A DNA stretch of 63,965 nucleotides, filler included, from an uncultured Methanosarcinales archaeon (GCA_964645415.1; 3 parts of 3 records of this genome joined end to end with filler, not necessarily neighbours in it), one strand, 5' to 3'. Counted from the first letter of the whole stretch, positions 3,001 to 6,000 are shown. Made by a program: the numbers.

Positions 3001-6000
3001 TCTAAAACAACTTTGTCAACTTGACTTTTTATTTTTTTTGATGTCTGTTTATCAACTAAAGCACAAAGTTTATTAGACTTATTAAGATTTGGTAAAGTTA
3101 AGTTTAAACTAAAATTGTTTGAAGTTTGTTTCATATCCATATCACGAATATTGATAATTGCTTCAAATGATTCTAAGAAGTTTCTATCTTTTGAATTAGC
3201 TCTTGCCTTACTTACTAATTCAGTAATTTCTTCTTTTTTTATTTGCATTTTAATTATCTCCTGCCCTACTACACAAGGTAGTTAACGGACATCATGTATG
3301 AAAAAGGTGACTGGTTTATATATTTTACTATTTTTTTGATGAATTAATATAAACGAAAAGTATTTTAATAAAATAAAATTTAATTTTTATGTTGCCTTTG
3401 TAGCTCAGTGGCTAGAGCACCAGCCTCGTAAGCTGGGGGTCGAGGGTTCAAATCCCTCTAAAGGCTTAATTAATAAACTAAGTTTTAAATTAAATAAAAA
3501 AGATATAAATAATTAGTTTAATAAAATATAATATGTGAAAAAATGAGATATAAAAATTTTAAGCTAGATCCATTCCAAGAAAAGTCAATTGAATCCTTAA
3601 ATAAAAATAGATCCGTAATAGTTAGTTCACCAACAGGATCAGGAAAAACATTAATTGCAGATTATTTGATTTCTAAGGCAATTGAAAAAGGAGATGAAGT
3701 AATTTATACATCACCAATTAAAGCACTTTCAAATCAAAAATATAAAGAATTTAGTAAAGAATTTGGAAAAGATAAAGTTGGATTGATGACAGGGGATGTT
3801 GTAATTAATCCTGAAGGTCAAGTAATTATAATGACAACAGAGATTTATAGAAATATGTGTGTTCAAGAAGATCAAAGAATTAATGATATTAAATATGTAA
3901 TTTTTGATGAAATCCATTATATTAATAATAGAGAAAGAGGTTATATCTGGGAAGAATCTATTATTTTCTCAAAAGAACATACTAGATTTTTATGTTTATC
4001 AGCAACAATACCTAATGCAAAAGAGTTTTCAAAATGGATTGAAAAAATAAAAAAACATAAAGTTGATGTGATAAAAAAAACAGATAGACCTGTACCTCTT
4101 CATGTTAAATTTTATTATCCAAATATAGGGATTTCATCTCTTGAAAAAATAAAGGAAATAGATAGTATTCCAACAAGAAGAAGAGGTAGAAGAAAAAAAA
4201 AGAGATTTAGACCAAAACATTATAATTTAATAAAAGATATAAAAGAAAAAAATCCTATTTTATTCTTTACTTTTTCAAAAAAGAAATGTTACAGACATGC
4301 TTTAGAACTTAGTAGAAAGAAGATATTTAAAAAAGATTCGAGTGCACTTCAATTATTTCAAAAGAGATTAAGAAAGTTACCAAATAATATTAATAGAATG
4401 AAGGCTGTTAAAACATTAAAAAAGACACTCCCTTATGGAATAGGATTTCATCATGCAGGAATCTTGCCAATTATAAAAGAAATTGTTGAGGAGTTATTTT
4501 CTAAAGGATTAATTAAAGTATTATATACAACTGAAACATTTGCGGTTGGAATAAATATGCCTGCAAAAACAGTATGTTTTGATTCTATGAGAAAATTTGA
4601 TGGTATTAATTTTAGACTTATTAATTCAAAAGAGTTCTTTCAAATCGCAGGTCGAGCTGGAAGAAGAGGTATAGATAAAGAAGGTTTTGTATATGTAATG
4701 CTAGATAAAAGAGATTTTGAATATAATAAAATAAAATCAATTACAGATGAAGATGTTGATCCTATTAAATCACAATTTCAACTTTCAGTAAATACTGTAT
4801 TGAACTTAATAAAAAATCATTCTAGCGAAAATATTAATAAAATTTTAAATGAAAATCTTTATGTTTATCAAAAATTTGGAGAAAATCTTGATATAAATAA
4901 GAAGAATACAATACATAGAAGATTTAATAATATTAAAGATAAGCTGATGAAAAGAGATTACATTGATTCAAAAGATAATCTTACATACAAAGGAGAATTC
5001 GCATCAAAAATATATTCTGATGAAATGATAATGACTGAAATTTTTGCAACTGATTTTGTAAATAATCTTAATGATTATCAAATTCTTTTGATGTTAGCTT
5101 CACTATCATGTGAAACTAGAGATAATGATCGATTTTATAAAAAGTATCAAACATCAATGCTATCCAGTTTATATAAAATGATATCTTCAAATAAATTTTT
5201 ATGGGATACAAAAAGATTCAAAAATTTAAAACAAATGACTGCTTTGATTCATCCAATATATTCAGAAGAAGATATTTTTAAAGCAATTAAAAACACAAAT
5301 ATCATGGAAGGAAATATTATTAGAATATATAGACAAATAATAGATAGAATTAATCAGATACAAGGATCAGAAGTAAGTATGAAAACAAATGAAAAGTTGA
5401 GTAGAGCAAGAGAGAACTTATTAAAATTCATAGAAGAAATTGATGAACATAGTAATCAAGAAGATAGTATAGAATAAAAAATTAAACTAACTAAGATTAT
5501 TAGGAATAAATAATACAAAATAAAAGTATTAAAAATTAAACAAAAAATAATTTAATAAGATAAAAAAGAAAAAATAACTATTATGAAATTCTAAAGAACT
5601 TCAAAAGAGCCATATCTCCCAGGAGAAATTTGTAATCTATTATTGAATTCTCTTACCCATCCTTTTTCTATCTTGATTTTATCTCCTTCATTTACCTTAT
5701 CAATATCTTCATTCCATAAAGCAACAATTACTTCACCAGTATCATCTTTTCCAGTATAATTACATACTCTTAAAGAACCAGCTCTAACTTCTTTTGGTTC
5801 ACCTTTTTCAGTAATTTCAAGAGTAATTTCATCAACTGATTTCTTTTTTTCTAAATCTTCAACTTTCATTTAACAAACACCATTATAAAATACTAGTTAT
5901 CATTTTTAAAAGTTTTTATATACCATAAAGAAAAAAAATAAATACTGGGTTGTTTTTTAACATTTACTGCCTCAATAGCTCAGCGGCTAGAGCACCAGCC

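Follow-up and report, generated by a model that had tools for sequence, protein, structure and literature searches.

The window analyzed here is a stretch of 63,965 nucleotides (three parts joined with filler) from genome GCA_964645415.1, which comprises 961 kb in 79 contigs. It carries a gene for a Ski2-like helicase that has a DSHCT domain but no arch, a description given in the genome-wide survey's note and borne out here by the open reading frame, the Pfam domains, a 27-residue junction, and a structural model. Our best reading is that the protein is an old, probably bacterial-derived, dispensable 3'-to-5' RNA helicase, and we give a probability of about 0.68 to its being a stand-alone enzyme of bacterial type. 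It is not an archaeal ortholog of Mtr4, and it shares descent with bacterial enzymes.

Gene, domains, and predicted structure

The gene is intact (644 codons translated, no internal stops; Table 1), and its product has the Pfam domains DEAD (residues 10 to 161), Helicase_C (285 to 376), and DSHCT (478 to 630), the last of which (PF08148) covers model positions 2 to 169 of 172 (E value of 3e-12) and passes the cut-off. The Pfam scan of this protein found neither of the families for the MTR4 stalk and beta-barrel (PF13234 and PF21408), and in the alignment the arch site holds 27 residues, versus 253 to 292 in nine Mtr4 rows. Motifs Q, I, Ia, II (DEIH), III, V, and VI are kept across 20 Woesearchaeales helicase rows. 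With two RecA domains, intact DExH motifs, and a winged helix plus ratchet/DSHCT domain, the protein belongs to the Ski2-like SF2 group COG4581, and it groups with Mtr4, Ski2, and HelY apart from Hel308 (support of 99, from a tree and not a COG profile). RecA2 is preceded by a basic loop (residues ~205 to 225; net charge of +10 here and of 0 to +11 among 16 rows), which may add RNA affinity.

TABLE 1 Features of the helicase locus, in window positions
Feature	Position	Strand	Remarks
tRNA-Thr(CGT)	3394..3466	+	76 bases upstream of the helicase gene, same strand; neighbor not conserved
Helicase gene	3543..5477	+	COG4581-type (Mtr4/Ski2/HelY family) DExH helicase, arch-less, 644 aa, contig C12
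RecA1 domain	3555..4121	+	aa ~5-193; Q motif, motif III SAT
Motif I in RecA1	3627-3650	+	aa 29-36
Motif II DEIH in RecA1	3906-3917	+	aa 122-125
RecA2 domain	4215..4727	+	aa ~225-395; unwinding beta-hairpin aa 350-359, motif VI aa 367-376
Winged-helix junction	4863..4946	+	Arch insertion site in Mtr4/Ski2/HelY; 27 residues, no stalk, no KOW barrel
DSHCT/ratchet domain	4974..5432	+	aa 478-630; ratchet helix aa 589-607
SSB gene	5591..5869	-	Single OB-fold; convergent with the helicase gene; neighbor not conserved
tRNA-Thr(TGT)	5969..6041	+	With tRNA-Thr(CGT), flanks the helicase and SSB genes, in this genome only

The AlphaFold2 model (pLDDT of 93, pTM of 0.90) is a four-domain ring whose top Foldseek match is the arch-deleted human MTR4 structure 6C90 (TM score of 0.83), with Hel308 at 0.71 to 0.74. 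The ranking of PDB sequences reported earlier was reproduced by phmmer: 6C90 leads (3e-106, aligned as one stretch over query residues 6 to 615) and is followed by yeast Mtr4 (2e-103), FRH (2e-101), Ski2 (3e-100), Slh1 (1e-51), and Hel308 2VA8 (7e-46). In the PDB-search alignment, R594, Q598, and D601 of the ratchet helix align with R1026, R1030, and E1033 of yeast Mtr4. However, Mtr4 heads the list because bacterial HelY-type proteins are absent among the matches listed, an absence judged on 60 PDB sequences. We also recovered the same best 120 homologues listed (query aside), which are 614 to 665 aa long and 52 to 74% identical and which, where named, are Woesearchaeota or Nanoarchaeota, plus one "bacterium." The GC and GC3 values of the gene are genome-like, and a recent transfer was rejected on the basis of this host-like composition.

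Comparison with characterized helicases

The ring of RecA1, RecA2, winged-helix, and ratchet domains, the DEIH motif, the beta-hairpin, and the DSHCT domain are common to this protein, Mtr4/MTREX/Dob1 (6C90), and FRH. Unlike Mtr4, it has neither an arch (stalk and KOW) nor an N-terminal extension, it carries R-Q-D instead of R-R-E in the ratchet helix, and it is not known to have partners of the TRAMP, NEXT, or Rrp6 types. According to the available part of PMC4267639, R1026, R1030, and E1033 form the Mtr4 ratchet, Hel308 has a tryptophan there, and the unwinding rate of arch-less Mtr4 is 0.49 per minute versus 0.59. With Ski2/SKIV2L it shares the core, the DSHCT domain, and the 3'-5' RNA helicase family, but it lacks the Ski3/Ski8-binding N-terminal region and the arch and sits on a separate branch. 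Thus, none of the arch, the R/R/E ratchet, and branching with Mtr4 or with Mtr4 plus Ski2 that would mark an Mtr4 ortholog is found in this protein.

The protein also resembles HelY (Mycobacterium smegmatis MSMEG_3885; Uson et al. 2015, as cited in the accessible text of PMC8931766), a prokaryotic COG4581 DSHCT helicase that functions in the absence of an exosome. HelY and its cyanobacterial-like relatives have D at the fourth ratchet turn and often Q at the third, as here. The fourth-turn residue is D in 20/20 Woesearchaeales rows, 21/23 rows of 760-aa bacterial proteins, and 21/21 HelY rows but E in 9/9 Mtr4 rows, and the R-Q-D ratchet helix is, in its sequence, bacterial-like. The protein is not HelY in the strict sense, as it lies on a separate branch in all trees and has no arch-length insert (27 residues, compared with 207 to 279 in most sampled HelY rows and 129 to 140 in two); moreover, actinobacterial HelY sits behind tatA-tatC, whereas the gene described here has no fixed neighbors. 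ASH-Ski2 (COG1202) and Hel308 (COG1204) share the Ski2-like SF2 core but represent different subfamilies: our protein has the DSHCT domain but neither the N-terminal zinc domain of ASH-Ski2 nor the Hel308 C-terminal domain (domain 5), and it scores at most 191 bits against the NCBIfam models of Hel308 and ASH-Ski2, whose cut-offs are at least 887.

Bacterial relatives and the arch-length series

Against 1.84 billion cluster representatives, prokaryotic proteins of 640 to 800 aa scored 360 to 466 bits, compared with about 365 bits or less for the best rows of Mtr4/Ski2 length, and dozens of bacterial 50% clusters outscored the top eukaryotic clusters (all among the best 150 of 21851 clusters). 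The nearest bacterial relatives are 40 to 46% identical to the query, and relatives come from eight or more bacterial phyla or candidate phyla, versus one archaeal order; the bacterial and giant-virus sets are samples of 80 rows out of at least ~600 per search. Long-form bacterial relatives (~750 to 790 aa) occur in Bacillota, Poribacteria, Armatimonadota, Wallbacteria, Muiribacteriota, and Ozemobacteraceae and have inserts of mostly 130 to 148 residues with about four Cys residues, and such a four-Cys stalk, lacking in the query, is kept by the DSHCT helicases of Bacillota, Poribacteria, Wallbacteria, and Muiribacteriota. Short-form relatives (620 to 700 aa) occur in Planctomycetota, Omnitrophota, and Fibrobacterota, have inserts of 22 to 35 residues, and are as arch-less as the query. 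The idea that the arch-less form is peculiar to archaea was therefore rejected. The arch looks to have been lost in this short-form set independently of the Woesearchaeales, because a grouping of Woesearchaeales with PVC and Poribacteria was rejected (approximately unbiased [AU] test, P = 0.019).

The family as a whole forms a graded arch series, from a full arch through the Cys-bearing stalk only to none, with repeated loss. Arch-less forms have so far been known chiefly as engineered deletions, and these natural members offer a small single-chain model for the contribution of the arch. Giant-virus relatives have inserts of 107 to 145 residues and branch with eukaryotes; a viral origin of the arch-less groups was considered and rejected on this position and on the lack of any match in viral contigs.

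Phylogeny and direction of transfer

The tree set comprised 119 rows hand-picked to span groups, with columns restricted to query residues so that the arch is excluded; unnamed rows (several Asgard, eukaryotic, and HelY-like ones) were labeled by tree position and Pfam domains, and L233, from a 0.9-Mb genome with a split Hel308, was treated as Woesearchaeales. Trees were built with FastTree (119 rows) and with quick PMSF runs of IQ-TREE (63 and 36 rows), and a separate tree had a Hel308 outgroup. Four blocks appeared in all three trees, namely, eukaryotic Mtr4 and Ski2 with giant viruses (support of 100), HelY (95 to 99), Asgard (88 to 94), and Woesearchaeales with bacteria (99 to 100). The last block has a stem branch of 0.32 to 0.34 and includes proteins of Bacillota, Planctomycetota, Omnitrophota, Poribacteria, and Wallbacteria; within it, the Woesearchaeales helicase clade (98 to 100) is sister to Bacillota (91 to 97). 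With the Hel308 outgroup, the block holds at 99, and the root of the tree stays unsettled.

AU tests on 36 rows, with constrained trees from fast searches, rejected Woesearchaeales grouped with eukaryotes and viruses (P = 1e-4 under LG+F+G4 and 2e-6 under PMSF), with Asgard, eukaryotes, and viruses (P = 2e-4 and 9e-4), and with Asgard alone (P = 2e-3 and 2e-8), as well as the query with Mtr4 alone (P = 1e-41). A special kinship of the protein with eukaryotic Mtr4 is thus not upheld, as bacterial clusters outscore eukaryotic ones and both trees and AU tests place the query with bacteria.

The opposite history, in which the family descended vertically in archaea (with Hodarchaeales and further Asgard lineages retaining the whole arch and Woesearchaeales being arch-less) and passed from an archaeon to bacteria, concerns origin rather than function and seems to us quite improbable. 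Asgard proteins do join the side of Woesearchaeales and bacteria (SH-aLRT of 81), and with the Hel308 outgroup four Asgard rows, the eukaryotes, and the query branch group at 82, with HelY apart. One onward transfer from Woesearchaeales is also seen, in a Thermoplasmata contig (L206/L447) that bears a copy nested within their clade. Furthermore, a topology that places the archaeal clade outside a monophyletic group of its bacterial relatives was not rejected (AU P = 0.10, PMSF), so that transfer out of bacteria is likely rather than proven. On the other hand, the best trees put the archaeal clade beside Bacillota at 91 to 97, eight or more phyla or candidate phyla on the bacterial side stand against one archaeal order, and many bacterial relatives keep the Cys-bearing stalk of 130 to 148 residues that is absent from the archaeal clade. 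In the phylum sample, moreover, G252 alone gave a real match from outside the order, and the accessible part of a survey of 294 archaeal genomes gives none (PMC10946056).

We favor bacterial descent, in which the source would be a bacterial COG4581 sub-branch distinct from actinobacterial HelY and from eukaryotic Mtr4/Ski2. In an old transfer, most probably out of bacteria, the gene would have reached the ancestor of (most) Woesearchaeales, whereupon the whole arch would have been lost and the gene inherited vertically, with loss in about half of the lineages.

Genomic context and tests of an exosome link

The helicase had been described as lying beside an archaeal exosome, which holds for the genome but not for the contig: the Rrp4, Rrp41, and Rrp42 genes are at C31:6857-9078, downstream of the proteasome alpha and SBDS genes. 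The genome also encodes DnaG and has two beta-CASP genes, 433 and 636 codons long; no aRNase J or ASH-Ski2 match was found in it, and Csl4 was absent by PF10447, a profile that missed a Sulfolobus control and is thus not fully sensitive. Further genes on C12 include ribosomal protein genes and a diphthine-synthase-like gene (the latter labeled by our reading of its sequence). We found no conserved helicase neighborhood in 30 loci at 1.5 kb or in 32 loci at 4 to 8 kb; the most frequent neighbor family occurs at no more than 5 of 32 loci, and the families seen at least three times include no exosome gene. A promoter scan, of a type not suited to archaea, gave chance-level results. Hel308 is a split gene in Woesearchaeales, including this genome, and a half of it is present in 57/61 genomes, carriers and non-carriers of the helicase alike.

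The helicase was found in 83 of 161 Woesearchaeales genomes of at least 85% completeness (87 matches minus four Hel308 halves; this genome and G097, G115, and G157, flagged as unpublished, are included in the tallies). This proportion is near the 395/822 reported earlier and supports the concentration of DSHCT in the order, although not confinement to it, since DSHCT occurs also in Asgard and in the Thermoplasmata contig. Among 201 genomes sampled across the phylum (out-of-order share not given), there were 92 matches in the order, the one real match outside it in G252, and five weak matches that are whole Hel308 genes. Non-carriers are the complement of the listed matches, and in drafts a missing gene may be an assembly gap.

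Rrp41 was found in 156, Rrp4 in 153, and aRNase J in 140 of the 161 genomes. Helicase presence was not associated with Rrp41 (80/83 carriers and 76/78 non-carriers; counts of 80/3/76/2, Fisher P = 1.0), Rrp4 (78/83 versus 75/78, P = 0.72), or aRNase J (73/83 versus 67/78, P = 0.82), in a test whose power is limited because the exosome is near-universal (156/161). Rrp41 without any helicase match occurs in two single-contig genomes (G014 and G022); the three genomes with the helicase and no Rrp41 are drafts of 70 to 300 contigs, with no complete genome of this kind, and the sole family with no exosome match (f37, comprising G036 and the single-contig G137) likewise lacks a helicase match. Carriers have larger genomes (mean of 1.36 versus 1.17 Mb, P = 0.001), as expected if the helicase gene is dispensable.

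The exosome operon was the same in 20 carriers (chosen for closest helicases and long contigs) and 20 non-carriers, and the helicase gene was never inside it. The numbers of alignment columns separating carriers from non-carriers (none in Rrp4, none in Rrp41, and one in Rrp42) were within those of shuffles. Helicase distances correlated with those of exosome subunits (rho = 0.55 in 19 genomes and 0.35 to 0.52 in 16 genomes), but in the same 16 genomes they also tracked the controls proteasome alpha (0.50) and SBDS (0.34), which indicates vertical descent rather than specific co-evolution. A free-standing RNase D-like nuclease of the Rrp6 family was present in 9/83 carriers versus 1/78 non-carriers (P = 0.018; one of four families tested, with non-independent kin and a weak 626-aa match in G004 excluded); the gene was not found in this genome. 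Genomic coupling to the exosome, whether as co-occurrence, linkage, or co-evolution, is therefore absent from these data, and the proposed exosome link has no such support and no sequence signature. As this link was the exciting part of the finding, its interest is lowered.

The premise that archaeal exosomes work with no Ski2-like helicase nearby was likewise too strong. In the accessible text of PMC7144898, ASH-Ski2 acts on RNA and, in Thermococcales, forms a network with the exosome and aRNase J; in Pyrococcus it was pulled down with Rrp41, with direct binding to Rrp4, DnaG, and Csl4 not seen.

It is clearly unlikely, in our estimation, that the helicase, whatever its origin, was convergently recruited as a dedicated though optional cofactor of the exosome, docking on the Rrp4 cap and threading unwound RNA into the complex, in the manner of Mtr4 and Ski2. 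It shares its fold, and presumably its polarity, with Mtr4/Ski2, and the lack of an arch is compatible with docking, as Mtr4 contacts Rrp4/EXOSC2 through its core and not the arch (available part of PMC10411580). In a genome with no Csl4, aRNase J, or ASH-Ski2 match, help with structured RNA may be of use, 80/83 carriers have Rrp41, the family with no exosome match also has no helicase, and RNase D-like genes lean to carriers. However, the exosome is kept unchanged in 76/78 non-carriers, the helicase is never in its operon and shows no excess co-evolution with it, and the nearest relatives belong to bacteria, which to our knowledge have no exosome. We also know of no tether of the Mpp6, Rrp47, or Ski7 type here (no search aimed at one was made), which we count against a cofactor role.

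Proposed activity

As a stand-alone enzyme, the protein would be a monomeric 3'-to-5' RNA helicase/translocase, with RNA specificity, polarity, ATPase activity, and unwinding as in its relatives. It would load, like them, on a 3' single-stranded RNA tail; RecA1/RecA2 would hydrolyze ATP, the ratchet helix would draw the RNA across the ring of four domains, and the duplex would be split at the beta-hairpin, as in Mtr4 and HelY. The loss of the arch also removes the KOW surface on which structured RNA or adaptors could bind, so any accessible 3' tail should be a substrate; candidates are mRNA, rRNA or tRNA precursors, and RNA:DNA hybrids. The helicase would probably aid whichever nuclease follows, the exosome included, while not being a dedicated partner.

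A genome-maintenance role on DNA or R-loops, for example, as a backup for the split Hel308, strikes us as highly improbable. An SSB gene adjoins the helicase gene here, a G4 ligand induces HelY, which unwinds RNA:DNA hybrids (accessible text of PMC8931766), and the top NCBIfam matches are Hel308 models, albeit far below their cut-offs. Nevertheless, the ratchet helix has no Hel308 tryptophan, the model has no C-terminal helix-loop-helix domain, the SSB neighbor is not conserved, and the Hel308 half is present independently of helicase carriage (57/61 genomes).

Published record and Asgard members

An archaeal Ski2-like survey (2024) of 294 genomes assigned none of its 466 proteins to COG4581, and neither a Woesearchaeota entry nor the Asgard protein OLS27414 appears in its supplement, as far as available (PMC10946056). 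A term search of the accessible text of PMC12993045 found no mention of Ski2, Mtr4, or the exosome. In the literature covered, which included few subscription papers and preprint supplements, there was no report of the Woesearchaeales group, as had been noted earlier, or of the Asgard COG4581 proteins. With no archaeal COG4581 protein in the available part of PMC10946056, the Woesearchaeales group looks unreported in print, and its description corrects the picture of COG4581 absence from archaea given there.

In Asgard archaea, about 15 clusters of 856 to 1009 aa score far above the remaining matches; they are known here as protein clusters, and those with names come from Hodarchaeales, Hodarchaeota, Heimdallarchaeota LC_3, Hermodarchaeota, and Promethearchaeota. 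Examples of the Asgard proteins are OLS27414.1, MHA1989795.1, and MFX0090366.1. Hodarchaeales have been proposed as close relatives of eukaryotes. A full-arch member in this group makes the origin of Mtr4/Ski2, by an Asgard, bacterial HelY, or viral route, testable, and it may matter more than the query itself. We consider it unlikely that the query and the exosome form a minimal Mtr4/Ski2-exosome pair (as an Rrp4-cap cofactor) and/or that the family is old in archaea, with Hodarchaeales proteins near the root of Mtr4/Ski2.

Grouping of Asgard with eukaryotes was not rejected by AU tests (P = 0.09 under LG+F+G4 and 0.14 under PMSF), nor was grouping of Asgard with HelY (P = 0.43 under LG+F+G4). 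An Asgard-eukaryote grouping in the first FastTree tree (0.996) was dropped, as the addition of HelY and giant-virus rows abolished it. The Pfam arch families miss the Asgard insert, which is 246 to 273 residues long and modeled as stalk helices around a beta-barrel (pLDDT of 86, from an alignment that includes eukaryotic rows). The best match of the Asgard model is the arch-bearing MTR4 structure 6RO1 (TM score of 0.73).

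Split Hel308 and copies of the arch-less helicase under other labels

In the source genome, Hel308, the archaeal Ski2-like helicase of a separate subfamily, is encoded by two separate genes rather than one, and among 61 Woesearchaeales genomes, 57 have their Hel308 match as a separate frame of 197 to 253 codons. Whole Hel308 genes (683 to 706 aa) are present in five other Nanobdellota genomes. Genome G162, whose copy of the arch-less helicase lies on a contig titled Thermoplasmata, has a whole Hel308 as well. Because this copy (L447/L206) branches within the Woesearchaeales clade, it probably reflects onward transfer from that clade. 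The record titled Methanosarcinales (L233, genome G161) is probably mislabeled; this 0.9-Mb genome has a split Hel308 together with a Woesearchaeales-type helicase.

Coordinates of Hel308-related genes and of the arch-less helicase copy
Feature	Location	Strand	Remark
Hel308 RecA1-only half, 218 aa	window 12832-13488	+	downstream of HerA
HerA-like ATPase	window 11319-12797	+	immediately upstream of Hel308 RecA1 half
Hel308 remainder, 504 aa	G000 (source genome), C14:4354-5868		contig other than that of RecA1 half
Arch-less helicase copy	L447:8567-10513 (G162; L206)		contig titled Thermoplasmata

The main helicase and SSB genes are bracketed by two same-strand tRNA-Thr genes (window 3394-6041) in a segment of host-like composition, an arrangement with no repeat in relatives.

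Exosome and RNA decay genes

No Csl4 match was found in the source genome, and its exosome cap appears to consist of Rrp4 only. DnaG, which in other archaea binds via Csl4, is nevertheless present. The source genome also had no match to aRNase J, versus matches in 140 of the 161 genomes of the order. Neither Rrp41 nor Rrp4 had a match in the two genomes of family f37 (G036 and G137), which may represent an exosome-less lineage; G137, a single contig, carries two tandem aRNase J-like genes. Stand-alone RNase D-like genes (356 to 399 codons) occur in 10 genomes (G002, G017, G018, G019, G038, G082, G103, G111, G154, and G159), 9 of which also carry the helicase.

Relatives in Asgard archaea and giant viruses

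Hodarchaeales and other Asgard-labeled genomes encode full-arch helicases of the Mtr4/Ski2/HelY family (856 to 1,013 aa; P0120, P0406, P0407, P0113, P0414, and relatives), whose placement as sister to eukaryotic Mtr4/Ski2 was neither supported nor rejected. Ski2-like helicases of ~720 to 870 aa on giant-virus contigs (L033-L189), with inserts of 107 to 145 residues in the nine measured, group with eukaryotic Mtr4/Ski2 in the tree.
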